Shown here one piece after another: positions 1-29,659 of a stretch of DNA of 64,000 bases. The notes beneath the pieces were generated by a model. It saw nothing but the letters and a program-made list of their open reading frames with translations. It was not told the DNA's origin and made no database searches. The position numbers and the translations under genes were made by a program. The DNA is taken from assembly GCF_056746865.1 (NCBI RefSeq), contig NZ_CM163382.1; one strand, given 5' to 3'. The stretch's first letter is position 1, and each line of letters starts with the position of its first letter.

Positions 1-664
1 CAACGGTACGGAAGAAAACCGCTCACCGGAAGCGTTATCCAAACACAGCGAAAGCAAGCGCGATTACTCTTACGACCGCAGCGTCCAGCATATTCAGCAT
101 CCTGGTTTTGCGGTGAAACGCCTCAACGTGGCGGTGGTGCTCAATCAAAACGCCCCGGCGCTGAAAAACTGGAAGCCGGAGCAGACTGCGCAACTGACCG
201 CGTTGCTGAACAATGCCGCCGGGATCGACGTCCAGCGCGGTGACAATCTCACCTTATCGCTGCTTAACTTTGTCCCGCAGGCGGTGCCGGTCGAACCAAT
301 TATTCCGCTGTGGAAAGATGACAGCGTGCTGGCCTGGGTACGCCTGATTGGCTGCGGCCTGCTGGCGCTGTTGTTGCTGTTCTTTGTGGTGCGCCCGGTA
401 ATGAAACGCCTGACGGCGGTGCGTGCGCCGGTTATCACACCAGAACCGGAAGCTGTCAGCGAACCGTGGATTGCCATGCCGGAAGAGGAGCGCAAAAACG
501 TCGACCTGCCGTCGCTGCCCGGCGATGACAGCCTGCCGTCCCAGAGTTCCGGCCTCGAAGTAAAACTCGAGTTCCTGCAAAAACTGGCCATGAGCGACAC
601 CGATCGCGTAGCCGAAGTTCTCAGACAATGGATCACCAGCAATGAGCGAATTGACAACAAATAA
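1..664 (+). CDS. lfiF: Flagellar MS-ring protein FliF, C-terminal part (5' end lies outside the window)
   Basis: Frame is open from the window edge to the stop at 664. It has a C-terminal TM helix (LIGCGLLALLLLFFVV) and an acidic FliG-binding tail, and is followed by fliG/H/I/J homologs in canonical order. Confidence 0.85.
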   Translation, partial: NGTEENRSPEALSKHSESKRDYSYDRSVQHIQHPGFAVKRLNVAVVLNQNAPALKNWKPEQTAQLTALLNNAAGIDVQRGDNLTLSLLNFVPQAVPVEPIIPLWKDDSVLAWVRLIGCGLLALLLLFFVVRPVMKRLTAVRAPVITPEPEAVSEPWIAMPEEERKNVDLPSLPGDDSLPSQSSGLEVKLEFLQKLAMSDTDRVAEVLRQWITSNERIDNK

Positions 665-1652
665 GAGCAACAGCTACCTGGAACAGGCGGCGATCCTGCT
701 ACTGTGCCTTGGCGAAGAAGCGGCGGCGACGGTGATGCAAAAACTCAGCCGCGAAGAAGTGGTGCGCCTGAGCGAAAACATGGCGCGGCTTTCCGGTGTC
801 AAAACCAGCATGGCGCGTAAAGTAATCAACAACTTCTTTGATGAATTCCGCGAACAGAGCGGCATCAACGGCGCATCGCGATCCATGTTGCAGGGGATCC
901 TCAACAAAGCCCTCGGCACCGAGATCGCCAGCAGCGTGATCAACGGCATCTACGGCGATGAGATCCGCTCGCGGATGGCGCGACTGCAATGGGTGGAACC
1001 ACGCCAGCTGGCGATGCTGATCTCCGAAGAGCATCTGCAATTGCAGGCGGTATTCCTCGCGTTTCTGACGCCGGAAATCTCGGCGGCGGTGCTATCGTAT
1101 CTCAACGAATCGGTGCAAAACGAAATTCTCTACCGGGTGGCGAAACTCAACGACGTTAACCGCGACGTGGTGGATGAGCTGGATCGCCTGATCGAACGCG
1201 GCCTGTCGGTGCTCTCTGAACATGGCTCGAAGGTGAAAGGCATCAAACAGGCGGCGGATATCGTCAACCGCTTCCAGGGTAACCAGCAGGTGATCCTCGA
1301 CCAGATGCGCGAGCGCGACGAGGACGTGCTGGAGCAGCTCCAGGATGAGATGTACGACTTCTTTATCCTCAGCCGCCAGAACGAAGAGGTGCGTCGACGT
1401 CTGCTCGACGAAGTGCCGATGGAAGACTGGGCGGTGGCGCTGAAAGGCACCGAAGCCCTGTTGCGCCGCTCGATTTACGCGGTAATGCCAAAACGGCAGG
1501 CGCAGCAACTGGAAGCCATCACCGCGCGCCTGGGGCCGGTGCCGGTCAGCCGTATCGAACAGATCCGCCGCGAAATCATGGGCATTGCCCGTGAACTGGA
1601 AGAGGCGGGCGAAATTCAGCTACAGCTCTTTGCGGAACAGACGGCGGAGTAA
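642..1652 (+). CDS. lfiG: Flagellar rotor/switch protein FliG (lateral system)
   Basis: 336 aa, the typical FliG length. It overlaps the fliF 3' end and precedes the fliH-like gene. Confidence 0.9.
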   Translation: MSELTTNKSNSYLEQAAILLLCLGEEAAATVMQKLSREEVVRLSENMARLSGVKTSMARKVINNFFDEFREQSGINGASRSMLQGILNKALGTEIASSVINGIYGDEIRSRMARLQWVEPRQLAMLISEEHLQLQAVFLAFLTPEISAAVLSYLNESVQNEILYRVAKLNDVNRDVVDELDRLIERGLSVLSEHGSKVKGIKQAADIVNRFQGNQQVILDQMRERDEDVLEQLQDEMYDFFILSRQNEEVRRRLLDEVPMEDWAVALKGTEALLRRSIYAVMPKRQAQQLEAITARLGPVPVSRIEQIRREIMGIARELEEAGEIQLQLFAEQTAE

Positions 1653-1654
1653 CC

Positions 1655-2365
1655 ATGACCATTGAAACACTGCGCGGGCGCTATCGCCTGCATCGTTTCC
1701 CGCCGCGCCAGCGTGCGGTGACCGGAGAACCGCTCACCGCCAGCATCAGCGCCGCCGATTACCAGCGCCAGTTGATGGACGGTTTTCAGGAAGGGCTGCA
1801 AAAAGGCTTTGCTCAGGGAATGACCGAAGGCCAAGAGCAGGGCTTTAGCGAAGGTCATCAGCAAGGTTTTGCCGAGGGGCGACGCCAGGGTTACACCGAA
1901 GGCAGCCTCGCCGGGCAGCAGGAAGGGCGCAAACAGTTTGTTGAGGCGGCGCAGCCGCTGGAAGCTATAAGCGGAAAAGTGAACGACTTTCTCGCCCATA
2001 TCGAACGTAAACAGCGGGAAGATTTGCTGCAACTGGTGGAAAAAGTCACCCGCCAGGTGATCCGCTGCGAACTGGCGCTGCAACCGACGCAGTTGCTGGC
2101 GCTGGTGGAAGAGGCACTGGCGGCCTTCCCGGCGATGCCGGAGACCCTGCAAGTGATGCTGAGTACGGAAGAGTTTAACCGCCTGCGCGACGCGGTGCCG
2201 GAAAAGGTCAGCGAATGGGGGCTGACGCCTTCGCCGGATCTGCCGCCGGGCGAATGCCGGGTCATTACCGATAAATCTGAACTGGATATCGGCTGCGAGC
2301 ACCGCCTTGAACAGTGCATGACCGCGCTGAAAGAAACACTCACGCCGGAGTCGCAGGGTGAGTGA
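1655..2365 (+). CDS. lfiH: Flagellar export/assembly protein FliH
   Basis: 236 aa with repeated Q/E-G-F motifs (GFQEGLQKGFAQG...) as in FliH. The stop overlaps the fliI start. Confidence 0.85.
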   Translation: MTIETLRGRYRLHRFPPRQRAVTGEPLTASISAADYQRQLMDGFQEGLQKGFAQGMTEGQEQGFSEGHQQGFAEGRRQGYTEGSLAGQQEGRKQFVEAAQPLEAISGKVNDFLAHIERKQREDLLQLVEKVTRQVIRCELALQPTQLLALVEEALAAFPAMPETLQVMLSTEEFNRLRDAVPEKVSEWGLTPSPDLPPGECRVITDKSELDIGCEHRLEQCMTALKETLTPESQGE

Positions 2366-3695
2366 TTTTTCCGCTTTCGATAACGCCCTGCGCTCGCTGG
2401 AGTCGATCCCGCTGGCCCGCGTCGCCGGGCGGCTGGTGCGTCTGAACGGCATTCTGCTGGAGAGCGTCGGCTGCCCGCTAATGACCGGGCAACTGTGCCG
2501 CATCGAAAGCGCCAATCACACGCTGATCGACGCGCAGGCAGTGGGCTTTAATCGCGACATCACCTACTTAATGCCGTTTAAACAGCCGGTCGGCCTGATG
2601 GCAGGCGCACGCGTCTTCCCGGAAGAAAAAGCCCACGACATCCTGATTGGCGAAAGCTGGTTAGGCCGCGTGGTTAACGGTCTCGGCGAACCGCTGGATG
2701 GCAAAGGCCGCCTGAACGGTAACGACCTTCTGCCGCCGCTGCCACCCTCAGTCAATCCCTTAACCCGCCGTTCAGTGGACGAACCGCTAGACGTGGGCGT
2801 GAAAGCGATTAACGGCCTGCTGACCATCGGCAAAGGCCAGCGTGTCGGGCTGATGGCGGGCAGCGGCGTCGGGAAAAGCGTGCTGCTGGGGATGATCACC
2901 CGCCAGACCAAAGCCGACATTGTGGTGGTCGGGTTGATTGGCGAACGCGGGCGCGAAGTAAAAGAGTTTATCGACCACTCGCTGGGCGCGGACGGGCTGG
3001 CAAAGTCTATCGTCGTCGTCGCACCCGCCGATGAATCGCCGCTAATGCGACTGAAAGCCACCGAACTGTGCCACTCCATCGCCGCCTGGTTTCGCGACCG
3101 CGGGCATCACGTCTTACTGCTGGTGGATTCCCTGACCCGCTACGCGATGGCTCAGCGGGAAATTGCTCTCTCGCTCGGCGAACCACCCGCCACCAAAGGC
3201 TATCCGCCATCGGCATTCGGCATGATCCCCAAACTGGTCGAGAGCGCAGGCAACAGCGAAAGCGCGGGATCGATGACCGCTATCTACACCGTGCTGGCGG
3301 AAGGCGACGACCAGCAAGATCCGATTGTCGACTGCGCCCGTGCGGTGCTGGACGGGCATATCGTATTAACCCGCAAGCTGGCGGAAGCGGGGCATTATCC
3401 GGCCATTGATATCGGCCAGTCGATCAGCCGCTGCATGAACCAGGTGACCAGCCTGGATCATCAGCAATCTGCCCGCGCGTTAAAGCAAAACTACGCCGCC
3501 TATATGGAGATCAAACCGCTGATCCCACTCGGCGGCTACGTGGCAGGTGCCGACGCCAGCGTCGACAAAGCGGTGAAAATGTTCCCGGCTATCGAGCGAT
3601 TTTTGCGCCAGGATATGCGCGAACCCGCCGCCCTGGAACTGGTGCAAAGCCGCCTGCAAATCCTCTTTCCTGGTGTCAAAAAGGCAGAACAGTAA
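2358..3695 (+). CDS. lfiI: Flagellum-specific type III export ATPase FliI
   Basis: 445 aa with Walker A (GSGVGKS) and F1/T3SS ATPase-like motifs. Confidence 0.92.
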   Translation: MSDFSAFDNALRSLESIPLARVAGRLVRLNGILLESVGCPLMTGQLCRIESANHTLIDAQAVGFNRDITYLMPFKQPVGLMAGARVFPEEKAHDILIGESWLGRVVNGLGEPLDGKGRLNGNDLLPPLPPSVNPLTRRSVDEPLDVGVKAINGLLTIGKGQRVGLMAGSGVGKSVLLGMITRQTKADIVVVGLIGERGREVKEFIDHSLGADGLAKSIVVVAPADESPLMRLKATELCHSIAAWFRDRGHHVLLLVDSLTRYAMAQREIALSLGEPPATKGYPPSAFGMIPKLVESAGNSESAGSMTAIYTVLAEGDDQQDPIVDCARAVLDGHIVLTRKLAEAGHYPAIDIGQSISRCMNQVTSLDHQQSARALKQNYAAYMEIKPLIPLGGYVAGADASVDKAVKMFPAIERFLRQDMREPAALELVQSRLQILFPGVKKAEQ

Positions 3696-3697: not shown

Positions 3698-4132
3698 ATG
3701 CGACAAATCATCGACACCCTGGCGCAGTTGCAGCGCCTGCGGGATAAATCGGTCAAAGACAAAACCGTCGAGCTGGCAAAGCAAAAACAGATTTGTGCGG
3801 GCTATGACAACAATATCAAAGCATTAGGCTACCTGGTGGAGAAAACGTCTGCAGGCGCGGCGGCCTCGGTGGAATCGCTGAAAAACGTTAGCGGCTACAA
3901 AGGCACCCTGCGCAAGGTGATCGCCTGGCAGGAGCAGGAAAAAACGCTGGCCGACATCAAAGCCACGCGAATGCAGAAAAACCTGACGGCGGCGGCGTGC
4001 GAAGAGAAAGTGGTGGCCCTGACGCTGGACGACAAACGCCGCGAGCAGCAGGAAAGCGCCACCGCGAAAGCGCAGAAAGCGGTGGATGACATCGCCGTTC
4101 AGTGCTGGCTGCGGCATAAGTTAGCGGAGTAA
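3698..4132 (+). CDS. lfiJ: Flagellar export chaperone FliJ
   Basis: 144 aa, predicted coiled coil, lying immediately after fliI. Confidence 0.7.
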   Translation: MRQIIDTLAQLQRLRDKSVKDKTVELAKQKQICAGYDNNIKALGYLVEKTSAGAAASVESLKNVSGYKGTLRKVIAWQEQEKTLADIKATRMQKNLTAAACEEKVVALTLDDKRREQQESATAKAQKAVDDIAVQCWLRHKLAE

Positions 4133-4134: not shown

Positions 4135-4539
4135 ATGAAAACGGTCATCACCTTCGGCACCTTTGATGTGTTTCACGTCGGTCATCTGCGCCTTTTACAA
4201 CGCGCCCGCAAGCTGGGCGAGCGGCTGCTGGTCGGCGTATCGTCCGACGCCCTGAACATCGCCAAAAAGGGCAGGGCACCGGTTTACCATCAGGATGACC
4301 GCATGGCGATTATCGCCGGTCTGGCGTGCGTGGATGGCGTTTTTCTGGAGGAATCGCTGGAGCAGAAAGCGGAGTATTTGCGGGGGTACGGTGCGGATAT
4401 TTTGGTGATGGGCGATGACTGGGCGGGGAAGTTTGACGATTTCTCGTGTGTCTGTGAGGTGGTCTATTTTCCCCGTACGCCATCGGTATCGACGACGGGG
4501 ATCATTGAGGTGATTAGGGGTAAATCAGCCACCTACTGA
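4135..4539 (+). CDS. Glycerol-3-phosphate cytidylyltransferase-like protein (TagD family; predicted to make CDP-glycerol)
   Basis: 134 aa with an N-terminal GTFDVFHVGHLRLL motif, the HxGH signature of the cytidylyltransferase fold. It starts 3 nt after the lfiJ stop, so it is probably co-transcribed with the flagellar operon. Confidence 0.75.
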   Translation: MKTVITFGTFDVFHVGHLRLLQRARKLGERLLVGVSSDALNIAKKGRAPVYHQDDRMAIIAGLACVDGVFLEESLEQKAEYLRGYGADILVMGDDWAGKFDDFSCVCEVVYFPRTPSVSTTGIIEVIRGKSATY

Positions 4540-4594
4540 TTTAATTCCCGCGGTGAGAGAAGATGATGCCGTCTGCCGTTTGGCTATGTTAAAT

Positions 4595-4690
4595 ATGTTT
4601 AAAAAATCGCGTTTTTTCGACATATCCCCAAAACATGTCGATGGCATAAACGTATTCCAACGACATGTTTAAAAATCGCATTTTATCGAC
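4595..4690. repeat. Direct ~32-bp repeats and CGACAT/ATGTCG inverted repeats in a convergent intergenic region
   Basis: GTTTAAAAAATCGCGTTTTTTCGACATATCCC at about 4597 and GTTTAAAAATCGCATTTTATCGACATATCCC at about 4658, with AACATGTCG...CGACATGTT between them. Confidence 0.6.
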
Positions 4691-7154
4691 ATATCCCTGA
4701 CGATTCCTTGCCCGCCAGCGCCTCCACAATCACCATCGCCGCCCGTTCTCCCGCCTTGCCATCCATAAACGCATCGCAATAGTGATGACGAATCTCCTTA
4801 AGCCGCGCCAGCAACGCACCCCAGTCAAACGCCTCTGACAACAAATAACGCAGTTCCGCAACATCATGAGCCACCGGCAATATTTCGCGGATTTGCTGGT
4901 CGGCGCTTTCGGGCGTGGAGTAACTTTTCTCACCGTCGAGCAACGCTGCCATTTCCGGAAAGTCGAGCAGGATTACCCGCTTATCAACGTGGATAGCATC
5001 GAAAATAAAGCCGCTGTTATCGGTCAGCACGTAATCGGCCTTTGCCAGTAGCGCCAGCGTGTGGTGGACGGAGTCGGTGCGCTGTTTTAAGTGCCTGCGC
5101 GCCAGGGCCAGCGATGCAGCTTCTTCCGGGCGCGAGCAGGTGCCGTGGTGCAGTTTGCAAATCAGATTCACATTGCCACTTAAGCGCCCCAATTTTTCTG
5201 CCCAGTGGGGCAGGGAGCTTAATGCGCCAAACGTGGGGGCGTAGAGCACCGTAGGTTTACGGGAATCGGGTTGAATATTTTCTGGCAGAATGCGGTCAAA
5301 CGTGCCGTTATGCCAGGCGTCGAAGCGCGGGTTGCCGACTGCTTTTGCATTGCCGAAATGCGCCAGCGCCCGCTGGCTGTAGTGGCTGTAACACAAAATG
5401 CGTTGATAAAAACGGTTCCAGTCGGCGTGGTTCCACGTCTCTTTGGCTAAGCCATACATGGCGCGAACGTTCACCGCTGCCAGGCCATTGAGCGCGGGCG
5501 TGTGGTAGGGGCTGACCAGGCATTTCACCCGCTGACCGTGTGCCTGCATTTCAGATAAGCGCATTCCTTTGAGCTGCGGATCGTCGATGCTTTTTAGCGT
5601 CTCCAGCATTTCATCCAGAAACGGTTTAAACACGCGGTCGTTGATCACCAGCGTGCAGCCTTGCCCCTGCGCCTGTAGGGCGGTGATGATTGGGCGGTAG
5701 AGCGCGTAATGGAAAGAAGTTTCCATAAAAAAGCCGATGGTGTCGGCGATGGGTAACGCGGATGGCTTTGTGATAGCAGGTAACTTATTGAAATAGTGAG
5801 CAATATTATCAGTCATTTTTTTCTCGATATCGCTAAAGCCTGGTCGCTGATAACTAAGGCTCGGGTAACAGGCCAGCCATTTGTCGGCGCGTAGCAGCGG
5901 CTGCCAGCCGTCTTCCAGCGAATGCTCATCGTTGCTCATCTGCTGCGCCAGTTGCGGGTAGTAGCGGCGGTTCACCAGATAAGCGCATACCTTGCGGCAG
6001 TCCCGCGCGTGCACCAGCCCCGGCAAACTTTTTAGCATCGTTCCCTGCGAAATTTCGCCGCCGAGGATCATCACCTGCCAGGGAATTTTCGCCAGGCTCG
6101 CCAGCAGCGTGTTCAGCACCTGAATATGTTTCTCCTGCTTGAGAATAACCGCGTCATCTTCCAGCAGCAGATAGTTTTGCCAGCCGTGCTGTTGCGCCAG
6201 GCGCAGCGCCTGCAAGTGCGACTGACGTCGTCCCCGTTGGCCGTTTTGATCTTCACTGGCGGCAAGGCGGGTGATCTTCTCAGGTGGAATATGCAGCAAT
6301 GCCAGTTCTTCACGGATCTGTTGTAAGCGATCCGGGCGTTTATCCAGATTCACAACAACTACCTGATCGATCGTCTGATGGTTGATCCCTTGGTGATGAG
6401 TGGCGTTATGTAGACTCAGATAAGCATTGCGCAGCAGCGGATCGCTGACGATATCTGTAAGCGCCGCGTTTACAGGCGTGCTGGCCCCGAGAATAAAGTC
6501 TTTATCAAAGGTGTTGTGGCTGTGCGAGATACACAGAATCGTGCGCTCGCCGGGCAGTTGTAGCGGGTTAACGCTGAAATTGTCGGTGAAACTTTTCTCT
6601 TCGCCTAAATTGCAATCATCGTCGTAACGGTGCTTTTTCAGGTAGTTACGGTGATAGCAAAAGGTGCCGTTGAGGATGTTATGTGGGCCAAAGCTGCGGC
6701 TTTGAAAGATGCGATTGATGTGGCTGTACCAGATGGGGATCTGGTCGGAGCCGGAGATGAGCGCCCGGTGTTTTTGCATCTTGGCGATGGTCCAGGAGAT
6801 TTTATCTGCCGGGTAGTAGTCGTCATCGTCCATGCAGAGGATGTATTCGCCGCGCGCCAGTTCGTTGAGCATATTGCGTTTTTTGCCCAGCGGCAGTTTT
6901 TCCGGGTGATGAATATAGCGGATGTTAAAGGCTTCCGGCGTGCCATTGGTCAGGCGGTCGATGATGTGTTGATGGCTTTGCGGGGAATCGTCGAGGATGA
7001 TGAGTTCGCGGCGGTCTGCCGGGTAGTCCTGATAGCGGTACATATAAAGCAGGTACGGCAGGAATGCGCTGCGGTTCCAGGTTGGCGTGACGACGCTGAT
7101 GAACGGTTTTTCGCGCTGGGTGGCGAGTGTTTTGATAATGGTTGGTGTTGGCAT
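4683..7154 (-). CDS. Multidomain glycosyltransferase: N-terminal GT2-like, central GT25-like, C-terminal CDP-glycerol glycerophosphotransferase (TagB/TagF)-like
   Basis: The ORF track gives 4683..7226, but its first 24 codons translate the repeat element, so the ATG at 7154 (MPTPTIIK) is the probable start. GT2-like motifs: VVTPTWNRS and LCMDDDDYY (DxD). GT25-like segment: VVVNLDKRPDRL...LLEDDAVI. TagF-like C-terminus: ADYVLTDNSGFIFDAIHVDKRVILLD. Confidence 0.8.
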   Translation of the reverse strand: MPTPTIIKTLATQREKPFISVVTPTWNRSAFLPYLLYMYRYQDYPADRRELIILDDSPQSHQHIIDRLTNGTPEAFNIRYIHHPEKLPLGKKRNMLNELARGEYILCMDDDDYYPADKISWTIAKMQKHRALISGSDQIPIWYSHINRIFQSRSFGPHNILNGTFCYHRNYLKKHRYDDDCNLGEEKSFTDNFSVNPLQLPGERTILCISHSHNTFDKDFILGASTPVNAALTDIVSDPLLRNAYLSLHNATHHQGINHQTIDQVVVVNLDKRPDRLQQIREELALLHIPPEKITRLAASEDQNGQRGRRQSHLQALRLAQQHGWQNYLLLEDDAVILKQEKHIQVLNTLLASLAKIPWQVMILGGEISQGTMLKSLPGLVHARDCRKVCAYLVNRRYYPQLAQQMSNDEHSLEDGWQPLLRADKWLACYPSLSYQRPGFSDIEKKMTDNIAHYFNKLPAITKPSALPIADTIGFFMETSFHYALYRPIITALQAQGQGCTLVINDRVFKPFLDEMLETLKSIDDPQLKGMRLSEMQAHGQRVKCLVSPYHTPALNGLAAVNVRAMYGLAKETWNHADWNRFYQRILCYSHYSQRALAHFGNAKAVGNPRFDAWHNGTFDRILPENIQPDSRKPTVLYAPTFGALSSLPHWAEKLGRLSGNVNLICKLHHGTCSRPEEAASLALARRHLKQRTDSVHHTLALLAKADYVLTDNSGFIFDAIHVDKRVILLDFPEMAALLDGEKSYSTPESADQQIREILPVAHDVAELRYLLSEAFDWGALLARLKEIRHHYCDAFMDGKAGERAAMVIVEALAGKESSGICR

Positions 7155-7198
7155 GGTGTTTGGGTGAGTTAATGGGTGAATGTGATGAATGTGCGTGC

Positions 7199-7313
7199 TG
7201 ATGCCCTCACCCCGACCCTCTCCCACAGGGAGAGGGAGAAAACCAGCGCTGATTTTAACACCGTGCTCGATCGGTTCCCTCGCCCCTTTGGGGAGAGGGG
7301 TAGGGGGAGGGGA
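7199..7313. repeat. G/C-rich nested-palindrome repeat element, copy 1
   Basis: CCCTCACCCCGACCCTCTCCCACAGGGAGAGGG ... CCCCTTTGGGGAGAGGGGTAGGGGGAGGGG, with the same architecture and flanks (GTGCGnnCTGATG) as the copy at 14561..14685. Confidence 0.7.
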
Positions 7314-7332
7314 AAAGCGCGCACAGAGCGAC

Positions 7333-8301
7333 TCACGTCAGCAGCGAAAACGCTGAAAGCAGCGGCTCTGCCGCACATAACGACTGAATTTGCTGGCGAA
7401 TCGACGCAGCATTTTCACTCTCTCGCCAGCGTTCAAACACCGCAAAAAGGGCGAAAATATCCTCCTGTCGCAGCGGTGAACCATCCAGCGTCCATAAACT
7501 GATTAACGTGCGGATAAGATAAAAATCGCACACCAGCGGGCAATAATCTGCTCCGTCTGCCTGCCCAATCACCTCATGGTAAACGCGGTAAATCAGCCAG
7601 TTACGCATCATCCAGGGCGCGGTAGCAAAATGCTGTTGCCAGGTGGTTTGCCACTGTGCCTGAAGCTGATGTTGTAACAGGGCTTCGCTGTTGGCGTCAT
7701 GTAGCGCCAGCAAAGGCATCTGCAACGGCAGCGAAGTTTTGCGCGGGCTTTCCGGCAAAATCGACCAGTCAAACGCACAACTGCCGAGCAGCGTCATCAA
7801 CTGGCGCGCCAGTTGTGGCACGGGCGGCAACTGGGCGAACTGTGCCTGTAGCGTGCCTTTTTTCGCATGATCGGCCAGCGCCTGCGGCAGCGTCGTCAAA
7901 CGGGCAAGAATATCTCCGTCTCTGCCCGGCATTTTACTGGCGCGGGAGAGTAAAATCCCGATGGCATACAGGGAAAGCTCTGGGGTTAAATCGGGGAGCG
8001 TGAGGGTACTCAAAATCACCTGGTTTACTATCGCATCGCGCGCGGAAAGCTCTGCGGCATTTTCTTCCACAGGACGGTAGGTGAGCTGTAAATCAAAGGC
8101 CCTGGCATCGTTGAGTACCGCTTCGCAGCTGGCTGGCTCTGTCAGCATCAGGCTCTGGCGAATCTCGTTTTTCCACACCTTGCGGATGTACAAAGGCGAA
8201 TCGGGATATTGCGTCATAAAATTGCGCACGTATTCCGGTTCGTAACATTCAATAAAACTCATAGGTGGCTTCCAGTCTTTATTACTTTGCGGAATATGCA
8301 A
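7333..8301 (-). CDS. Hypothetical protein (322 aa) at the end of the lfgA-lfgM-lfgN gene string
   Basis: Long ORF co-oriented with lfgN and ending just upstream of the glycosyltransferase gene. I recognise no motif. Confidence 0.5.
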   Translation of the reverse strand: MHIPQSNKDWKPPMSFIECYEPEYVRNFMTQYPDSPLYIRKVWKNEIRQSLMLTEPASCEAVLNDARAFDLQLTYRPVEENAAELSARDAIVNQVILSTLTLPDLTPELSLYAIGILLSRASKMPGRDGDILARLTTLPQALADHAKKGTLQAQFAQLPPVPQLARQLMTLLGSCAFDWSILPESPRKTSLPLQMPLLALHDANSEALLQHQLQAQWQTTWQQHFATAPWMMRNWLIYRVYHEVIGQADGADYCPLVCDFYLIRTLISLWTLDGSPLRQEDIFALFAVFERWRESENAASIRQQIQSLCAAEPLLSAFSLLT

Positions 8302-8388
8302 TAAGCGTGCCGGGAATTTTTATAATCAAAAACAAAGGATTGTGAATCAGGCGGAAAATCCGTTTCCGCTATGGGGAAGGTGTTCGCG

Positions 8389-11490: not shown

Positions 11491-11504
11491 TGTCCGGTGC
11501 CAAA

Positions 11505-20739: not shown

Positions 20740-21039
20740 ATGGCTACTCTAAAAGAACTGATGGCAAAGCAAAGCCCTGAAAGCCAGGTGCGTATTGCGG
20801 CAAAAGTTGAGGAAATGCGCCAGACCATCGCCTTGCATCAGCTGAGAGAAGAACTCAATATTTCGCAAACGGAAATGGCGGCAGCGATGGGCATTAAGCA
20901 ACCGACTCTTGCAAAAATGGAGCAGGCAGATAACGATCCTCGGTTGTCTACGCTAAAACGCTATGTTGCGGCTTTAGGTGGGGAATTGAGTATCGACGTT
21001 AAACTGCCGAATGGTAAGAGAATTGCATTTCAGATTTAA
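20740..21039 (+). CDS. Type II antitoxin, XRE/HigA-family helix-turn-helix protein
   Basis: 99 aa with an HTH motif (ISQTEMAAAMGIKQPTLAKME), tightly coupled to the upstream toxin gene. Confidence 0.75.
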   Translation: MATLKELMAKQSPESQVRIAAKVEEMRQTIALHQLREELNISQTEMAAAMGIKQPTLAKMEQADNDPRLSTLKRYVAALGGELSIDVKLPNGKRIAFQI

Positions 21040-21990: not shown

Positions 21991-22424
21991 AAAGCACAGT
22001 CTTATACGTCCCTGAGAAGATGATTTTTCTGCGTGATAATTAATATTTTATGGTGATAAGATTATTCTTAATCACTATATAGCGTGGAAATGTAACGAAA
22101 TGACAGGACAGGTACAATAGCCAAATGTGTACTATTTGCAACGCAATGTAAATTTTGGCATCAGTACATTGAGAACAAAACGCGATAATTGATGACAATC
22201 TTAACTATATCAAGCGTTTGATAAAGACATATTTTGATACCTGGCCATGTGGCAGATATTGCTAATAATCTTTTTATCTGAATTTAAACTCTGCTTTTTT
22301 TAGCTAAAAGTGGCATCGGATAATACGTGGCGAAAAAATTTTAACGGCGATTTTAAGTTTGCTCCTGAGGTGTCGTTTTTACAGGGTATCGAAACGAAAA
22401 CGATTAATCCCAAGGAGCAGTATC

Positions 22425-23344: not shown

Positions 23345-23380
23345 GACTTGCCGATGCGGCGTAAACGCCTTATCCGGCCA
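23345..23380. repeat. REP unit downstream of lafA
   Basis: GCCGATGCGGCGTAAACGCCTTATCCGGCC. Confidence 0.7.
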
Positions 23381-23385
23381 CGAAC

Positions 23386-23414
23386 AACACCGCCTGCGGG
23401 CGGTGTTGTGCTTT
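23386..23414 (+). terminator. Rho-independent terminator candidate after lafA
   Basis: Hairpin AACACCGCCTGCGGGCGGTGTT followed by a T-rich run (GTGCTTT). Confidence 0.6.
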
Positions 23415-23496: not shown

Positions 23497-23511
23497 TGGC
23501 ACGCCTTTTGC
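23497..23511 (+). promoter_or_regulatory. Candidate sigma-54 (-24/-12) promoter for lafB through lafU
   Basis: TGGCAC-gcctt-TTGC with canonical spacing, about 33 nt upstream of the lafB ATG. Confidence 0.6.
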
Positions 23512-23543: not shown

Positions 23544-24860
23544 ATGATTAACCCAAGAACCATTGCGCAAGAAATTGCTTATGCGGATGTCGCCACCCAG
23601 GCGGCAAATTTGCAGGAGAAGCAGACCGAGCTGGACGCTGAAAGCAGCGGCCTGGACTCGCTCAGCTCGGCGTTAAGCGATTTCCAGAGCGCCGTTGACG
23701 CGCTGAACAGCGATACCGACGGCCCGGTGACTTTTGCCGCCACCAGCAATAATGACTCGGCGACCGTTTCCGCTAACTCGCAGGCACAGGCGGGAAGCTA
23801 CTCGTTTTTCGTTGAGCAACTGGCGCAGGGGCAGCAAACCACGTTCAGTATGGGCGACGACGCCTTTTCCGCTACCGGTACTTTTGAACTGACGATGGGC
23901 GACAGCACCATGGATATCGATCTGTCGGCGGCAGATCAGAACGGTGACGGCGACGGTTTTATCGACGCCAGCGAACTGGTGAACGCGATTAACGACTCCG
24001 ATGATAATCCAGGCGTTTCAGCGGCGTTGGTGAAAACCGACGGCACCACCACCATTATGCTCACCTCCGATAGCACCGGGGCGCAGAGCGCGTTTTCGGT
24101 GAGCGTAACGGGGCATGATGCCAGCAACGATAGCACCAGCGCGCCCGTTGCCACGGTTGTTTCCTCAGCCCAGGACGCGATTATTCATCTCGGTAGCGCC
24201 ACGGGCCCGGCGATCACCAACAGCAGCAATACGTTTGATGATGTGATCCCCGGCGTCACCATGACTTTTACCGAAGTCAGCGATTCTGACAGCGACCTCA
24301 CCACTTTTAACATCAGCGAAGATTCCAGCTCCAGCCAGGAGAAAGTACAGACTTTTGTCGATGCCTATAACACCTTGATTGATACGGTTGATTCGCTAAC
24401 CACTCACGGTGATGACAGTACCAGCGCCGGGGTATTTGCAGGCGACGCCGGACTCAGTTCACTGGCGAACCAGCTCGATGACATCGCCCATGCCAGCTAC
24501 AACGGCGTGTCGATTGTTGACTATGGCATCACCCTCGATTCTCACGGCCACTTACAGATTGACTCCGACCAGTTCAACGACGAAATGGCGAAAAATCCTG
24601 ACGGTCTGACCTCTATTTTCGTTGGCGACAACAGCATGGTAGCGCAGATGGACGACCTGATTAACACCTACACGGACTCCAGCAACGGCATCATCACCCT
24701 GCGCCAGCAGAACATTGACGATCAGATGAGCAAAATTCAGGACGAAGGCGATCAGCTTACTGATACCTATAACGCCAACTACGACCGTTATCTGGAGGAG
24801 TACACCAACACGCTGGTCGAGGTGTACACCATGAAAGCCAGCATGGCGGCATTCGCGTAA
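23544..24860 (+). CDS. lafB: Flagellar filament cap protein FliD-like
   Basis: 438 aa in the fliD position after the flagellin gene, with a coiled-coil N-terminus. Confidence 0.75.
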   Translation: MINPRTIAQEIAYADVATQAANLQEKQTELDAESSGLDSLSSALSDFQSAVDALNSDTDGPVTFAATSNNDSATVSANSQAQAGSYSFFVEQLAQGQQTTFSMGDDAFSATGTFELTMGDSTMDIDLSAADQNGDGDGFIDASELVNAINDSDDNPGVSAALVKTDGTTTIMLTSDSTGAQSAFSVSVTGHDASNDSTSAPVATVVSSAQDAIIHLGSATGPAITNSSNTFDDVIPGVTMTFTEVSDSDSDLTTFNISEDSSSSQEKVQTFVDAYNTLIDTVDSLTTHGDDSTSAGVFAGDAGLSSLANQLDDIAHASYNGVSIVDYGITLDSHGHLQIDSDQFNDEMAKNPDGLTSIFVGDNSMVAQMDDLINTYTDSSNGIITLRQQNIDDQMSKIQDEGDQLTDTYNANYDRYLEEYTNTLVEVYTMKASMAAFA

Positions 24861-24882: not shown

Positions 24883-25275
24883 ATGTACCAAGTACAGGAC
24901 GGCTATTCGCAATATAAAGAGGTCGATCTCGCGGCGCGTACTGCGGCGGCCTCTCCGCTTGAACTGGTGCTGGTGCTGTTCGCCGGGCTTCTCGACGAGC
25001 TGGAACGCGCCAAAAGCCATATTGAAGGGCGGCGTTTCGAGAAGAAAGCCCAGAGCATCAATAAATGCATCGACATTCTCAATGCGCTCACCAGTTCGCT
25101 GGAGTTTGAAACCGGCGGCGAGCTGGTGGTCAACCTTTCGCGACTCTATGACCACTGTGTGTATCGCTTGTATGAGGCCAGCGGCGAACTGTCGGCAGAG
25201 AAAATCGATGAAGTGATGCTGATCTTAAGCAACCTGCGCGAAGGCTGGGAAGGGCTTTCGGGCAAGCTGGGTTAA
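24883..25275 (+). CDS. lafC: Flagellin-specific chaperone FliS-like
   Basis: 130 aa of FliS-like size and character, following fliD. Confidence 0.8.
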   Translation: MYQVQDGYSQYKEVDLAARTAAASPLELVLVLFAGLLDELERAKSHIEGRRFEKKAQSINKCIDILNALTSSLEFETGGELVVNLSRLYDHCVYRLYEASGELSAEKIDEVMLILSNLREGWEGLSGKLG

Positions 25276-25279: not shown

Positions 25280-25591
25280 ATGGAAAAACAACGCAGGCAA
25301 CTTTTCGCACTGGTTGAGGCGATGAACGAAGCCCTCGACAAGCAACGCTGGCGACGGCTTCCGGCACTGCATCAGCAGTTGATGCGCCAGTTTCACGATT
25401 ACGTGGCGGCGGAAACCGACGCGGCGCAGTTGTGTGCGGTGAAGGCGCAGCTGTACGGCGCGTTTAATGCCCTGATTAAACGGCGCGAGCAGCGTGCAGA
25501 AGTGTTGAAGGCGCGTATGGAACAGCATCAGCGGCATCAGGAAGGCGTACTGGCCTACTCAATTGTTAATTTACTTTCGGAGAAGTCATGA
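25280..25591 (+). CDS. lafD: Small helical flagellar protein (FliT-like position)
   Basis: 103 aa, predicted helical, between fliS and fliK homologs. Confidence 0.5.
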   Translation: MEKQRRQLFALVEAMNEALDKQRWRRLPALHQQLMRQFHDYVAAETDAAQLCAVKAQLYGAFNALIKRREQRAEVLKARMEQHQRHQEGVLAYSIVNLLSEKS

Positions 25592-26646
25592 ATCCGGCAT
25601 TGCTTGCCACGCTCGGAACGCTTGCGGAAACGGCGTCGCTGAAAACGGACATCTTACCGCCGGTGAGCGGTGAAAACGCGCCCGCGTTTACCCTGCCGAA
25701 AATGGCGGGCGCGGCGGTGGCAGAGCGCGTTCATAGCGCTAAAACCAGTCAGCAACAGGCGACGCGCCCGCAGGAGAACGATCCGGTGGCGATGCAGGCG
25801 CTAATGGCGCTGTTACTTCCGCAACCTGCCGCGCCGCATCAGGAGACGCCGCAGCCGCGAAACGCCGCAACATCGCCAGTTATTCAGCAATTGACGAAAG
25901 CGGTGGTGCAAAACGCGCCGCAACGCTCGACACAACAGCAGGAACTCACGCCGTTGCCGCCACAGTTGCAGGAACTGATCGGTCAGTTGCCGCAGGCGAA
26001 ACCCGAACAGCAGGCCAGACTGGCGACTTACGCCAGTGAAGATTTACATGCCATTGCGCCGACGCAGCCGCGCGTCTCAACACAGCCAGCTCGCCCGAAA
26101 ACTGAACTAACCCGTGTGACCGCGCGCCCGCAGGTCGAGCGTAAAACGGAAAAAGTGACGGACAGCGAACCGGTTATTGCGCGTGCGGTGTTGCAGGTTA
26201 AGACGCCGGAACTGGTCAGCGATCATCAGGAGATTGTCGCCAAACCAGCCACGCTTTCGATGGACGAACTGGGTGAAAAACTGACGACGCTTTTGAAAGA
26301 TCAGATCCACTTTCAGCTCAACAAACAACAGCAGATCTCCACCATCCGTCTCGATCCACCGTCGCTTGGCAAGCTTGAGATCGCCGTACAACTCGACAAC
26401 GGCAAACTGATGGTGCACATCGGCGCGAATCAAAGCGAAGTTTGCCGCGCGTTACAGCAGTTTAGCGACGATCTCCGCCAGCATCTGACGGCGCAAAATT
26501 TTATGGAGGTGAACGTACAGGTTTCCTCCGAAGGGCAGTCGCAGCAACAACAGTCGGGCCATCAGCAGGAAGAGGTGAGTGCCGCCTTACAGCTTGATGA
26601 TGCGCCTCAATTTCAACAGAACGAATCCGTTTTGATCAAAGTGTAA
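25588..26646 (+). CDS. lafE: Flagellar hook-length control protein FliK-like
   Basis: 352 aa with a Pro/Gln-rich central region and a FliK-like C-terminal domain. Confidence 0.7.
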   Translation: MNPALLATLGTLAETASLKTDILPPVSGENAPAFTLPKMAGAAVAERVHSAKTSQQQATRPQENDPVAMQALMALLLPQPAAPHQETPQPRNAATSPVIQQLTKAVVQNAPQRSTQQQELTPLPPQLQELIGQLPQAKPEQQARLATYASEDLHAIAPTQPRVSTQPARPKTELTRVTARPQVERKTEKVTDSEPVIARAVLQVKTPELVSDHQEIVAKPATLSMDELGEKLTTLLKDQIHFQLNKQQQISTIRLDPPSLGKLEIAVQLDNGKLMVHIGANQSEVCRALQQFSDDLRQHLTAQNFMEVNVQVSSEGQSQQQQSGHQQEEVSAALQLDDAPQFQQNESVLIKV

Positions 26647-26653: not shown

Positions 26654-27121
26654 ATGAAGAAAATCGTGGTGGCGGGCGTGGTCAGCGCCGTTCTGGCGTT
26701 GGTGGTGGGGGCCGGAGCTGGATGGGGTGTCTGGCATCATTATGCCGGAAAAGGAAAACCGACGGCCGTTGCACGGGCGGAAACGGTGGAAACCCTGGAT
26801 GAAAGCAAAAGCGTGTTTGTGACGTTGCCGGAAACCATTGTCACGCTGCATGACAACAACGGTGCGGACCATTATTTGTCGGCGGAATTAGTGATGGTGG
26901 TCGCCAGTGATAAAGAAGCGGAAAAAATAAAACATCAGGAGCCGCTGTATCAAAGTATTGCAGTTGAATGCCTGACGGAAATGAAATTTGAAGATTTGCG
27001 CGGCATGAAAATATCCGCCATCCGCAAACTGATTTCTGATGCGTTAAAGAAAGATCTTCAGCGTCGCAAAATGAGCGCACCGTATAAGGATTTGCTGGTG
27101 AAAAAAGTGGTCTTCCAGTAA
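26654..27121 (+). CDS. lafF: Flagellar basal-body-associated protein FliL-like
   Basis: 155 aa with a single N-terminal TM helix and FliL-like architecture, preceding the sigma-28 and motor genes. Confidence 0.7.
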   Translation: MKKIVVAGVVSAVLALVVGAGAGWGVWHHYAGKGKPTAVARAETVETLDESKSVFVTLPETIVTLHDNNGADHYLSAELVMVVASDKEAEKIKHQEPLYQSIAVECLTEMKFEDLRGMKISAIRKLISDALKKDLQRRKMSAPYKDLLVKKVVFQ

Positions 27122-27140: not shown

Positions 27141-27857
27141 ATGCTACAGGACGTATTCGAGTCAGAAGAATTTGCTGCCGCGCCGGTATTAACCCCGCAG
27201 CAGGAGAGCCACTACTTGCAGGCCTATCTACCGTTGGTGCGTAAAGTGGTGCGGCAACTTGCTCCGCAGTGTAATTGCATTATTGACCGTCAGGATATGG
27301 AACAAACGGCGTTAATGGGGCTGCTTAATGCCATTCGTCGCTATGGGCTGCCGGACGAAGGTTTTGCGGGCTATGCCGTGCACCGGATTCGCGGCGCGAT
27401 CCTGGATGAGCTGCGCGCTCTCGACTGGCGACCGCGCCAGCTGCGACAGAAATATCATCAGATGAAAGATCTGATTCGTGAGACGCGCAAAAAACTGGGG
27501 CACGAACCGGAGTGGTCAGAACTGGCCGTGGAAGGGATTTCGCATGAAGATTATCTCGAATATCAGCAACTGGAAGGGGCGGAAACGCTCGCCAGCCTTG
27601 ACGAACTGCTGAACGGTGAAGGGCCAGGCATTCCACTTGCTGGCAGGGAACTGGAAGATCAGTTTGTTACCCAGCAAATGCTGCAATACGCGCTTTCACA
27701 ATTAAGCGAAAAAGAGCAACTGATCCTCTCCATGTATTACCAGCATGAGATGAATCTCAAAGAGATTGCGCTGGTATTAGGGCTAACCGAAGCCCGAATT
27801 TGTCAACTGAATAAACAGATCGCGCAGAAAATTCGTGATTTTGTCTATCCGAATTAA
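27141..27857 (+). CDS. lafS: Flagellar sigma factor (FliA/sigma-28 family)
   Basis: 238 aa with a sigma-70 region-2-like segment and a C-terminal region-4 HTH (LKEIALVLGLTEARICQLNKQ). Confidence 0.85.
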   Translation: MLQDVFESEEFAAAPVLTPQQESHYLQAYLPLVRKVVRQLAPQCNCIIDRQDMEQTALMGLLNAIRRYGLPDEGFAGYAVHRIRGAILDELRALDWRPRQLRQKYHQMKDLIRETRKKLGHEPEWSELAVEGISHEDYLEYQQLEGAETLASLDELLNGEGPGIPLAGRELEDQFVTQQMLQYALSQLSEKEQLILSMYYQHEMNLKEIALVLGLTEARICQLNKQIAQKIRDFVYPN

Positions 27858-27869
27858 AGTGAAGAAATC

Positions 27870-28733
27870 ATGCAAAAAATATTAGGTTTACTGGTGGTGC
27901 TCGGCTGCGTATTTGGCGGTTATTTTGAAGCGGGCGGGCAATTAGTGGCTATCTGGCAACCGGCGGAAATGATCATTATTTTGGGGGCGGGTTTCGGGGC
28001 AATGATTATTGGTAATCCGAAACATGTGCTGAAAGAGATTGCTCATCAAATTAAAGGCGTGATCAGTAAAAAACAGCTCGGGCCGGAGTTTCAGCGCCAG
28101 CTATTAATGTGTCTGTATGAGTTGCTCGAAATGGTGCAAAACGGTGGTCTGCGCATGTTGGATCAGCATATTGAGCAGCCGGAAGAGAGCACCATTTTCC
28201 AGAAATACCCGCTGGTGTTAACCCAGAAGCGGCTGGTGACCTTTATTGCCGATAACTTTCGCCTGATGGCGATGGGCAAAATCGACGCCCACGAACTGGA
28301 AGGGATTCTCGATCAGGAGCTGGACACCGCCGAAGAGTCGCTGCTAACGCCGTCACGCTCGCTGCAACGTACCGCCGAGGCGATGCCAGGGTTTGGCATT
28401 TGCGCGGCGGTGCTGGGCATCATCATCACCATGCAGTCGATTGATGGGTCTATCGCCCTGATTGGCCTGAAAGTGGCGGCAGCGCTGGTGGGGACGTTTT
28501 TAGGCGTCTTTATCTGCTACTGCCTGATGGACCCGCTCGCCAACGCCATGGAACAACAGGCGCGGGCGGAACATTCTTTGCTGGAATGCGTGCGCACCGT
28601 GCTGGTGGCGCAGGCAGGCGGCAAACCGACGCTGCTGGCAGTGGACGCCGGGCGTAAGCTGCTGCATCTGGCGTCCAAACCGACCTTCGCCAACCTCGAC
28701 GCGTGGGTGAATGCGATGCTGGAGCAAGAATAA
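27870..28733 (+). CDS. lafT: Flagellar motor stator protein MotA-like
   Basis: 287 aa with four predicted TM helices and conserved MotA C-terminal segments. Confidence 0.9.
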   Translation: MQKILGLLVVLGCVFGGYFEAGGQLVAIWQPAEMIIILGAGFGAMIIGNPKHVLKEIAHQIKGVISKKQLGPEFQRQLLMCLYELLEMVQNGGLRMLDQHIEQPEESTIFQKYPLVLTQKRLVTFIADNFRLMAMGKIDAHELEGILDQELDTAEESLLTPSRSLQRTAEAMPGFGICAAVLGIIITMQSIDGSIALIGLKVAAALVGTFLGVFICYCLMDPLANAMEQQARAEHSLLECVRTVLVAQAGGKPTLLAVDAGRKLLHLASKPTFANLDAWVNAMLEQE

Positions 28734-28735
28734 GC

Positions 28736-29659
28736 ATGAGAAAGACGGGCAACCGCCGCGAGCGTGGGGCAAAAACCACCATCGTCCGGCGGCAGATCAA
28801 AAAAAATCATGCCGGGCATCACGGCGGGGCGTGGAAGGTGGCGTTCGCCGACTTTACTTTGGCAATGATGGCGCTATTTATGACGCTGTGGATTGTCAAC
28901 AGCGTCAGTAAATCCGAGCGTGAAAGCATTATCGCCGCGCTGCACGGGCAGTCGATTTTTAACGGTGGCGGGCTGTCGCCGTTAAATAAAATCAGACCGT
29001 CTCATCCGCCAAAACCTGCCACCGTGGCGGTGCCGGAAGAGACGGAGAAAAAAGCGCATGACGTCAACGAGAAAACGGCGCTGCTGAAGAAGAAATCCGC
29101 TACTGAGCTTGGCGAGCTGGCAACCAGTATCAACACCATTGCCCGTGATGCGCATATGGAAGCGAATCTGGAGATGGAGATTGTTCCCCAGGGACTGCGC
29201 GTGCTGATTAAAGATGACCAGAACCGCAATATGTTTGAACGCGGCAGCGCGCAGATTATGCCGTTCTTTAAAACTTTGCTGGTGGAGTTAGCACCGGTTT
29301 TTGATTCGCTCGACAATAAGATCATCATCACCGGGCATACCGATGCGATGGCCTACAAAAACAATATCTACAACAACTGGAACCTTTCGGGCGATCGCGC
29401 GCTTTCAGCTCGTCGGGTGCTGGAAGAGGCCGGAATGCCGGAAGATAAAGTGATGCAGGTAAGTGCAATGGCGGACCAGATGCTGCTGGATGCCAAAAAT
29501 CCGCAAAGCGCGGGCAACCGGCGCATTGAGATTATGGTGCTGACCAAAAGTGCGTCCGATACGCTGTATCAATACTTTGGTCAGCATGGGGATAAAGTGG
29601 TGCAACCGCTGGTGCAAAAGCTGGATAAGCAGCAGGTGCTTTCGCAGCGAACGCGTTAA
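28736..29659 (+). CDS. lafU: Flagellar motor stator protein MotB-like (OmpA-type peptidoglycan-binding domain)
   Basis: The ATG at 28736 follows the lafT stop. It has a TM helix (FADFTLAMMALFMTLWIV) and a C-terminal OmpA-like motif (NWNLSGDRALSARRV). Confidence 0.85.
   Translation: MRKTGNRRERGAKTTIVRRQIKKNHAGHHGGAWKVAFADFTLAMMALFMTLWIVNSVSKSERESIIAALHGQSIFNGGGLSPLNKIRPSHPPKPATVAVPEETEKKAHDVNEKTALLKKKSATELGELATSINTIARDAHMEANLEMEIVPQGLRVLIKDDQNRNMFERGSAQIMPFFKTLLVELAPVFDSLDNKIIITGHTDAMAYKNNIYNNWNLSGDRALSARRVLEEAGMPEDKVMQVSAMADQMLLDAKNPQSAGNRRIEIMVLTKSASDTLYQYFGQHGDKVVQPLVQKLDKQQVLSQRTR

Follow-up and report, generated by a model that had tools for sequence, protein, structure and literature searches.

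The role of the second flagellar system of Escherichia coli, Flag-2, has been open since 2005, and about a quarter of the strains keep this 39-kb machine of more than 40 genes, which has never been seen working in the species. The system reportedly came to light in enteroaggregative E. coli 042, in work by Ren, Beatson, Parkhill and Pallen published in 2005 in J Bacteriol 187:1430. The stretch of 64,000 nucleotides of contig NZ_CM163382.1 analysed here (the window) opens with a set of flagellar genes extending to position 29659, and raises the questions whether these genes belong to a complete Flag-2 flagellum, how long they have resided at their site, and whether the organelle they encode could work. 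We conclude with high confidence that window 1–29659 belongs to the Flag-2 locus already known from E. coli, of which it makes up the downstream three-quarters, comprising the 3′ part of cluster 1 and clusters 2 and 3 in full, in the variant found in strain 042 but with an intact lfgC, and that, together with the upstream half of an identical genome, it encodes a complete lateral-type second flagellum. Already published are the order of the genes, their location beside dinB, the remnants in K-12, an intact lfgC outside 042, the promoters for sigma-54, the variable regions and the frequency in the population; the present analysis adds selection figures, the finding that the LafA and LfgG proteins do not vary, a mosaic pattern of identity to 042, the rare occurrence of a toxin-antitoxin pair and the polymorphism of repetitive extragenic palindromic (REP) elements. 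The locus thus holds nothing new in kind, but the question of its role is sharpened by the selection data.

Identity and completeness of the locus

The window corresponded to nt 3999408–4063407, reverse strand, of NZ_CP023142.1 (E. coli CFSAN061770), with 100% identity and no gaps, the match including a strain-specific ISEc31 insertion in paoA. Many complete E. coli chromosomes also matched its initial 25 kb and the following 15 kb at 100% identity. NZ_CP023142.1 served as a stand-in for the part of the locus outside the window (the upstream half), cluster 1 upstream of lfiF being known from this record only. The right boundary was confirmed at dinB, which starts 70 bp past the end of lafU, and in the annotation of the identical genome rayT lies upstream, placing the locus between rayT and dinB. 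This is the Flag-2 site, yafL-rayT to dinB, at which K-12 retains remnants: in MG1655 the rayT-dinB interval holds only the pseudogenes lfhA’ and lafU’, and homology of K-12 to the window picks up again at 28888, inside lafU. A preliminary description of the window, made from the sequence alone, had proposed a second flagellar gene set in lateral order, ending directly before dinB at the site of a known E. coli cluster of which K-12 keeps remnants; every element that it listed was found in place by open reading frame (ORF) map, PGAP annotation and NCBIfam profiles, and the end point and the site were borne out as well.

The genes were arranged as lfhAB-lfiRQPNM-lafK-lfiEFGHIJ, lfgNMABCDEFGHIJKL and lafWZABCDEFSTU (Table 1), with variable region 1 (VR1) between lfiJ and lfgN and VR2 between lafW and lafZ, as in the three-cluster scheme with VR1 and VR2 of De Maayer 2020. 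All 39 Flag-2 genes listed as conserved in that study were present in the identical genome without a PGAP pseudogene flag. No internal stops were found in the flagellar frames, NCBIfam profiles were matched essentially end to end, and LafA, LafU, FliI, FliH, FlgE, FlgF, FlgH, LafS and MotA scored above the curated equivalog cut-offs, in keeping with the earlier statement that the frames are uninterrupted and of plausible length. The upstream half, which that description had left for inspection as the place where frameshifts or losses might lie, was annotated as intact in the identical genome for lfhA, lfhB, lfiR, lfiQ, lfiP, lfiN, lfiM, lafK, lfiE and lfiF; a copy of ISEc31, lying past the 3′ end of lfhA on the rayT side, breaks no gene. 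Functional motifs were likewise kept. LafK, of 326 aa, is a sigma-54 activator without a receiver domain, in which the AAA+ sigma-54 interaction domain and the GAFTGA motif are present; LfhB keeps the autocleavage site NPTH, and the membrane helix of LafU still has its conserved Asp. LafW and LafD matched no family in NCBIfam or Pfam, lafE had no NCBIfam match at E ≤ 1e-15, and there were no che genes within the Flag-2 locus. Three VR1 genes, lafW, a toxin-antitoxin pair and lafZ, all in this interval, had not been listed in that description.

Flag-2 of E. coli 042 shared the site, gene order and gene content of the window, including the VR1 trio and the VR2 toxin-antitoxin pair. Two collinear blastn blocks with 95.6% and 98.6% identity covered the window to 30800, except for a bacterial interspersed mosaic element (BIME) of 127 bp between lfgD and lfgE that is missing in 042. 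Identical proteins included LafA, LafB, LafW, LafZ, LfgG, LfgH and LfgJ, as well as LafK and LfhA of the upstream half. The main difference lay in lfgC, which is intact here with 432 bp, versus 434 bp and annotated as frameshifted in 042, where alignment showed a 2-base gap and 5 stops in the frame used by the window; in addition, lfgD was 9 bp longer here, and ISEc31 lies downstream of lfhA in the matching genome, unlike in 042. The Flag-2 loci of strains W, Crooks, ST131 EC958, PCN033, MFDS1022581 and SA186 shared with the window the site, the 39 core genes, an intact lfgC, sigma-54 sites before lfgB and lafB and an identical LafA, but differed in VR1 content and REP/BIME occupancy and mostly lacked the toxin-antitoxin pair. 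Some of these loci carry EcoRII/Dcm genes between lfgM and lfgA, as observed in MFDS1022581, or a Mu prophage.

The same repertoire in the lateral gene order is present in the laf systems of Vibrio parahaemolyticus and Aeromonas hydrophila and in Flag-2 of Plesiomonas shigelloides and Yersinia enterocolitica, which share LafK, LafS, a short flagellin of the LafA type and the LafT/LafU stator and are treated in the literature as homologous. The lateral type was evident here from a flagellin and a stator protein scoring above the cut-offs of the LafA model NF033376 and the LafU model NF005273, respectively; a second lateral flagellin model, lat_flg_LafA_2, gave 280 bits for LafA, below its cut-off of 365. 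Unlike the lateral systems of Vibrio and Aeromonas, that of E. coli possesses the Flag-2-specific LafW, LafZ and LafV. The systems of Vibrio, Aeromonas, Plesiomonas and Yersinia have been shown by experiment to function, with swarming, surface induction and, in Y. enterocolitica, expression at low temperature, whereas the E. coli system is known from its genes.

For nearly every structural gene a one-to-one paralogue exists in the primary flagellar system, Flag-1, the K-12 proteins FlgN to FlgL sharing 25% to 48% identity with their Flag-2 counterparts. Flag-2 forms a single contiguous locus, whereas the Flag-1 genes are dispersed; its control would be by sigma-54 and LafK versus FlhDC for Flag-1; its flagellin is short, without the hypervariable domain; and LfgJ has 99 aa versus 313 aa in Flag-1 FlgJ, which carries a muramidase domain.

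Distribution, selection and age

The lfgK-lafA segment was found in 1285 of the 5426 complete E. coli genomes (23.7%), with coverage of at least 80% in 1258 of them, agreeing with published frequencies of 20–24% (De Maayer 2020; PCN033 study). Window 1–25000 was covered to at least 80% in only 913 genomes, probably owing to the variable VR1 and to inserted genes. RefSeq NZ_CP026085.1, labelled as E. coli DH5alpha, carries the full Flag-2 segment where a K-12 derivative would be expected to have stubs, and is probably mislabelled.

Selection was estimated by the method of Nei and Gojobori, the pooled values being uncorrected ratios of nonsynonymous to synonymous differences per site (pN/pS), a proxy for dN/dS. 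In comparison with 042, the pooled pN/pS of the Flag-2 genes was 0.097 at pS 0.088, and that of the flanking genes 0.006 at pS 0.043; in comparison with MFDS1022581 the figures were 0.063 at pS 0.217 for Flag-2 and 0.014 at pS 0.206 for the flanks. The flagellin gene lafA differed from that of MFDS1022581 by 43 synonymous and 0 non-synonymous changes, and lfgG showed 28 and 0, respectively. Among the most constrained genes were also those of the stator, lafT and lafU (dN/dS 0.01–0.04, lafT 0.01, against 0 for lafA), while the glycosyltransferase gene, lafV, lafZ and lafE were less constrained (dN/dS 0.13–0.26). LafA and LfgG had identical protein accessions in four E. coli loci that differ by 4–6% in DNA. 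The Flag-2 genes are therefore under strong purifying selection, and the conservation of LafA is unusually strict for a flagellin. The low pN/pS suggests that the genes were being used while E. coli diversified, and strong purifying selection together with an invariant flagellin and an invariant distal-rod protein makes long-term silence unlikely.

Identity to 042 was mosaic, being 99.9–100% from lfgG to lafB (13.7–24.9 kb), 93–98% on either side and 98.6–99.4% in the flanking core genes, which indicates that segments of the locus have been replaced by recombination. Recombination within the Flag-2 locus was also noted for ST131 (EC958 study).

REP and BIME sequences, which the preliminary description had noticed between genes, were located in the lfgD-lfgE, lfgF-lfgG, lfgJ-lfgK and lafA-lafB spacers. 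They are intergenic imperfect palindromes of 35–40 nt in alternating orientation, of the Y type GTAGGCCGGATAAGGCGT...GCATCCGGCA and the Z type GCCTGATGCG...CTTATCAGGCCTAC. Four Y-type copies shared 88–100% mutual identity, and the REP-derived Rfam family naRNA4 scored 78.4 bits, versus a gathering score of 59.5, at 13586–13662. Queries containing a BIME matched 9–57 places in essentially every E. coli genome, and the lfgD-lfgE junction was occupied by a BIME, with length variants, in 1025 genomes. Since the elements are of the E. coli type and rayT, the gene of the REP transposase, adjoins the locus, they show residence in E. coli. As proof of antiquity they were rejected, two of the BIMEs being present or absent among closely related loci.

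That the cluster is an old resident is supported mainly by the conserved site, the remnants in K-12 and the matching synonymous differences of locus and flanks, the equal pS arguing for long co-residence, rather than by the REPs. The earlier proposal of an old, resident system thus stands on site, stubs and pS, but not on the repeats with which it had been argued, and in composition the locus is still foreign. With a G+C content of about 57–60% against about 51% in the flanks, it forms a compositionally foreign block, in line with a deviation of +4.8% for Escherichia Flag-2 (De Maayer 2020). This composition, together with an exchange of segments as seen in the mosaic identity to 042, is what a recent horizontal import into this strain would lead one to expect; such an import is nevertheless very improbable, as the insertion site was identical in all strains examined and holds the K-12 stubs, pS against MFDS1022581 was as high within the locus as beside it, and E. 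coli-type elements lie inside it, that of the lfgD-lfgE junction recurring in so many genomes. Least probable of all, to the point that we give it practically no credence, is a reading of the cluster as the strain's primary, peritrichous flagellar gene set, for which shared gene names and nothing more could be adduced. It was ruled out by the low identity to the K-12 Flag-1 proteins, by a different chromosomal site, by the match of LafA to lateral flagellins, and by the primary flgE-flgF segment, which occurs once each in 5424 of the 5426 complete genomes independently of Flag-2, the coexistence of the two systems being judged from these genomes.

Proposed control and function

The locus appears to carry a control system of the lateral kind, comprising LafK, perfect sigma-54 sites at lfgB and lafB, and its own LafS and LfgM; both of these sigma-54 sites had previously been described in PCN033 (PCN033 study). 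A loose motif, T[TA]AAGTTT-N11/12-[CT]CG[CT]TTT, occurred within the 38.7-kb locus only at the two sites before lafA and lfgM, which may be LafS promoters whose −10 element departs from the FliA consensus; because the pattern was derived from those very two sites, it is a lead only. The strong hairpin 3′ of lafA suggests that the flagellin gene is monocistronic. The lafS gene is located in the lafB operon.

The lateral hierarchies of Vibrio and Aeromonas are the model for the order of control proposed here. By analogy, LafK and sigma-54 would act at the two perfect sigma-54 promoters to activate the lfgB (hook-basal-body) and lafB operons. LafS would then be supplied by the latter operon and restrained by LfgM until the hook-basal body is complete, and freed LafS would direct transcription of lafA and lfgMN. 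LafZ, a ToxR-like membrane regulator divergent from lafA, is the likely input point. The parts encoded by the window and the upstream half are a type III export gate with ATPase (LfhAB, LfiPQR, LfiHIJ), MS and C rings, rod, L and P rings, hook, junction and cap, a filament of the short 304-aa flagellin LafA and a MotA/MotB-type stator, LafT/LafU. Modification of LafA is probably the task of the VR1 enzymes, namely the TagD-like protein, the GT2/TagB-like glycosyltransferase and the FliB-like methylase. The data show what the locus is and that it is complete, its intact frames and conserved motifs, its promoter sequences, the purifying selection on it and its distribution among genomes, whereas the regulatory order, the modification of the flagellin and the actual assembly and rotation are what we infer.

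Several points weigh against a complete and working organelle. The intact upstream half of the source genome is deduced from 100% identity to one record and not from the window itself. No sigma-54 consensus, with at most one mismatch, was found before lafK or the lfiM operon, and when the lafZ-lafA spacer was scanned for the E. coli FliA consensus TAAA-N15-GCCGATAA, allowing up to 2 mismatches and then spacings of 13–17, nothing convincing came up. LfgJ, having the rod-binding domain only, lacks a muramidase domain. No Flag-2 filaments or motility were reported for E. coli in the literature searched. In ST131 EC958, which has an intact lfgC, LafA was undetectable by western blot and fliC mutant cells failed to move at either 28 or 37°C (EC958 study); strains W and Crooks swarm, but this could not be traced to Flag-2, and 042 did not swarm. 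Finally, W and Crooks are without MotY(L) and Maf-5, which are needed in Vibrio and Aeromonas. In the present locus no ORF was annotated as or matched MotY or Maf in general profile scans, no search aimed at the MotY and Maf-5 sequences having been made. 

On the other side, intact frames, conserved motifs and a pooled pN/pS of 0.06–0.10 are consistent with function, and the sequence evidence is favourable although short of proof; in Plesiomonas a functional Flag-2 is known, and Yersinia enterocolitica expresses its own at low temperature. The possible functionality put forward in the preliminary description is accordingly upheld as far as these features go, but experiments published on other E. 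coli strains gave negative or inconclusive results. We tentatively suggest, as a possibility somewhat short of an even chance, that the 042-type locus with an intact lfgC is a fully working second motility organelle, which would be switched on by LafZ and LafK under some so far untried condition, be it low temperature, a surface, viscosity or gut mucus, and would build a filament of invariant flagellin modified by glycerol-phosphate or glycan and methyl-lysine. If this is true, the 0 amino-acid changes against 43 synonymous ones in LafA would reflect a constraint beyond filament assembly.

Two other fates of the locus have to be weighed against a working flagellum. A genetically intact but silent relic, unexpressed under natural conditions and heading for a K-12-like deletion, would account for the absence of the locus from three quarters of E. 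coli genomes, the lack of LafA expression in EC958, the lfgC frameshift in 042, the common insertions of insertion sequences, prophage and restriction-modification genes, and the lack of MotY and Maf-5 in the E. coli loci described in the literature. We regard such a relic as rather unlikely, since a pN/pS of 0.06–0.10 over a pS of about 0.2, with ratios of 43:0 in lafA and 28:0 in lfgG, is incompatible with long-term neutrality, and a pseudogene flag was present in only one of the four loci inspected, that of 042 (those of MFDS1022581 and SA186 being read from lfiF/lfiG onward). The apparatus could also have been kept for a role other than locomotion, be it secretion, adhesion or surface sensing: secretion was raised by De Maayer 2020, who found effector-like cargo in VR1 or VR2 of some taxa, and strains with Flag-2 already have a working Flag-1. 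This is improbable here, the strong constraint on lafT/lafU and lafA arguing for a rotating filament and the cargo consisting of flagellin-modification enzymes and a toxin-antitoxin pair, with no effectors. To decide whether a working lateral flagellum is made, a strain from the lineage of the window, in which the gene content of 042 is combined with an undamaged lfgC and a full upstream half, would be a reasonable choice for an expression and electron-microscopy test.

Table 1. Features of the window's Flag-2 locus, with the source of each assignment
Feature	Position (nt)	Strand	Basis or remark
lfiF (fliF paralogue, MS ring), 3′ end, last 664 bases, gene start outside window	1–664	+	PGAP of identical genome
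lfiG (FliG, rotor/switch)	642–1652	+	TIGR00207, profile 12–329 of 338, E 9e-60
lfiH (FliH)	1655–2365	+	NF009925, 316.7 bits vs cut-off 192, full length
lfiI (FliI export ATPase)	2358–3695	+	NF005535, 772.6 bits vs cut-off 715
lfiJ (FliJ)	3698–4132	+	TIGR02473, full length
VR1, TagD-like glycerol-3-phosphate cytidylyltransferase	4135–4539	+	TIGR01518, E 1.6e-33, below cut-off
VR1, 823-aa glycosyltransferase, N-terminal GT2, weak C-terminal TagB/F-like match	4683–7154	-	Pfam PF00535, E 2.5e-17; PF04464, E 0.028
Spacer with G+C-rich palindromic repeat CCCTCTCCC...GGGAGAGGG, copy 1	7155–7332		Repeat at 7188–7266
lafV, FliB-like flagellin lysine-N-methylase, weak match	7333–8262	-	NF038110, E 2.8e-11, 43.5 bits vs cut-off 85; name from De Maayer 2020
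Sigma-54-like site CGGCAC-N5-TTGC, one mismatch, 36 bp before lafV	8298–8312	-	Consensus search
lfgN (FlgN chaperone)	8389–8817	-	PGAP; 37% local identity to K-12 FlgN
lfgM (anti-sigma-28)	8830–9108	-	TIGR03824, full length
Candidate LafS/sigma-28-type promoter TAAAGTTT-N12-ACCGCTTT, before lfgM	9147–9173	-	Pattern derived post hoc
lfgA (P-ring chaperone)	9189–9926	-	TIGR03170
Predicted sigma-54 promoter, perfect TGGCAC-N5-TTGC, 38 bp before lfgB	9956–9970	+	Consensus search
lfgB (rod)	10008–10343	+	NF009328, full length
lfgC (rod), intact; 042 copy frameshifted	10346–10777	+	TIGR01395, positions 3–136 of 137
lfgD (hook cap)	10777–11490	+	NF007198
BIME (Z-type and Y-type REP), lfgD-lfgE spacer	11491–11633		Absent in 042 and MFDS1022581
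lfgE (hook)	11634–12836	+	NF005286, 538 bits vs cut-off 467, 1–402 of 402
lfgF (rod)	12836–13573	+	NF009280, 316.6 bits vs cut-off 210
BIME, three REPs (Y-Z-Y), lfgF-lfgG spacer	13574–13751		Present in 042, absent in MFDS1022581
lfgG (distal rod), WP_000990540.1	13752–14537	+	TIGR02488, 351.8 bits
Spacer with G+C-rich palindromic repeat CCCTCTCCC...GGGAGAGGG, copy 2	14538–14743		Repeat at 14550–14628
lfgH (L ring)	14744–15409	+	NF009072, 432 bits vs cut-off 323
lfgI (P ring)	15424–16524	+	NF003676, 450.6 bits
lfgJ, 99 aa, rod-binding domain only	16524–16823	+	PGAP (rod-binding protein); aligns to residues 30–102 of 313-aa K-12 FlgJ
BIME (Z-type and Y-type REP), lfgJ-lfgK spacer	16824–16998		Sequence reading, repeat comparison
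lfgK (hook-filament junction)	16999–18375	+	TIGR02492, full length
lfgL (hook-filament junction)	18390–19319	+	TIGR02550
lafW, conserved Flag-2-specific protein	19336–20313	+	Name from De Maayer 2020
VR2, Gp49/HigB-like (RelE/ParE superfamily) toxin	20389–20730	+	Pfam PF05973, E 1.3e-20; PGAP
VR2, helix-turn-helix (HTH; Xre-type) antitoxin	20740–21039	+	NCBIfam HipB/Y4mF-type antitoxin matches
lafZ, ToxR/CadC-like regulator	21097–21939	-	CadC/OmpR-type DNA-binding matches, residues 24–120
Candidate LafS/sigma-28-type promoter TTAAGTTT-N11-GTCGTTTT, 46 bp before lafA	22353–22379	+	Pattern derived post hoc
lafA, lateral flagellin, 304 aa	22425–23339	+	NF033376 lat_flg_LafA_1, 667 bits vs cut-off 440, 1–304 of 304
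Single REP 3′ of lafA (lafA-lafB spacer)	23352–23380		Sequence reading
G+C-rich hairpin of 11 bp, terminator-like, 3′ of lafA	23384–23409	+	Inference
Predicted sigma-54 promoter, perfect TGGCAC-N5-TTGC, 33 bp before lafB	23497–23511	+	Consensus search
lafB (FliD filament cap)	23544–24860	+	NF005955, E 2e-44
lafC (FliS chaperone)	24883–25275	+	TIGR00208
lafD (FliT-position protein, 103 aa)	25280–25591	+	Position and literature
lafE (FliK hook-length control)	25588–26646	+	PGAP
lafF (FliL)	26654–27121	+	PGAP
lafS (FliA-type sigma-28)	27141–27857	+	NF009091, 447 bits vs cut-off 339
lafT (MotA stator)	27870–28733	+	TIGR03818, 375.5 bits vs cut-off 303.8
lafU (MotB-like stator)	28736–29659	+	NF005273 LafU, 575 bits vs cut-off 383
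dinB, boundary gene, not part of Flag-2	29730–30785	+	PGAP of identical genome; K-12 comparison

Variable regions and neighbouring DNA

The VR1 cargo, nt 4135–8262, encoded the TagD-like cytidylyltransferase, the GT2/TagB-F-like glycosyltransferase and the FliB-like LafV; TagD in VR1 was recorded by De Maayer 2020, and the three together form the set for flagellin modification that the same study reports from Flag-2 loci of Enterobacteriaceae. A 30-nt direct repeat with 90% identity (4599–4628 and 4668–4697) was present in the convergent spacer between the TagD-like and glycosyltransferase genes, its second copy overlapping the 3′ end of the glycosyltransferase ORF. In VR2, a toxin gene lies upstream of an HTH antitoxin gene at a distance of 9 bp, which would make the pair a type II, HigBA-like toxin-antitoxin system. 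It was found in 71 of the 5426 complete E. coli genomes, always with at least 99% identity, always chromosomal and at a single site, and Flag-2 loci were mostly without it (88% coverage of the lfgK-lafA query). LafZ is laid out with a winged-helix N-terminus of the CadC/ToxR type, one hydrophobic segment and a C-terminal domain; its gene is divergent from lafA, with a spacer of 485 bp in a stretch of low G+C content (41–45% over 21–23 kb).

Besides the REPs, the locus contained two copies of a repeat of another kind, with the palindrome CCCTCTCCCACAGGGAGAGGG flanked by GGTGAGGG-type arms, which resembles the Box C family of E. coli.

Downstream of dinB, in the dinB-yafNOP region, the toxin gene yafO (31133–31531) had an in-frame TAA at codon 66, a lesion also annotated in 042, while the gene is intact in K-12; with the antitoxin gene yafN intact and yafO broken, the toxin appears to be disarmed in this lineage. 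An RNA ligase gene of the rtcB family and prfH, encoding release factor H, were intact at 32172–33934, whereas K-12 has the pseudogenes ykfJ and prfH. Two identical copies of ISEc31, of the IS3 family, were recognised, one at 51905–53162, splitting paoA (aldehyde oxidoreductase subunit), and the other just downstream of lfhA, outside the window; the Rfam family isrC scored inside ISEc31 at 51973–52095. Near the tRNA-Thr gene thrW (42648–42720), a 117-nt direct repeat derived from ykgR, with 91% identity between its copies at 43314–43430 and 63874–63990, brackets about 20 kb carrying LysR, hydrolase and major facilitator superfamily genes, paoABCD, yagU and ecpRABCDE, and may be the trace of a rearrangement at the thrW integration hotspot.

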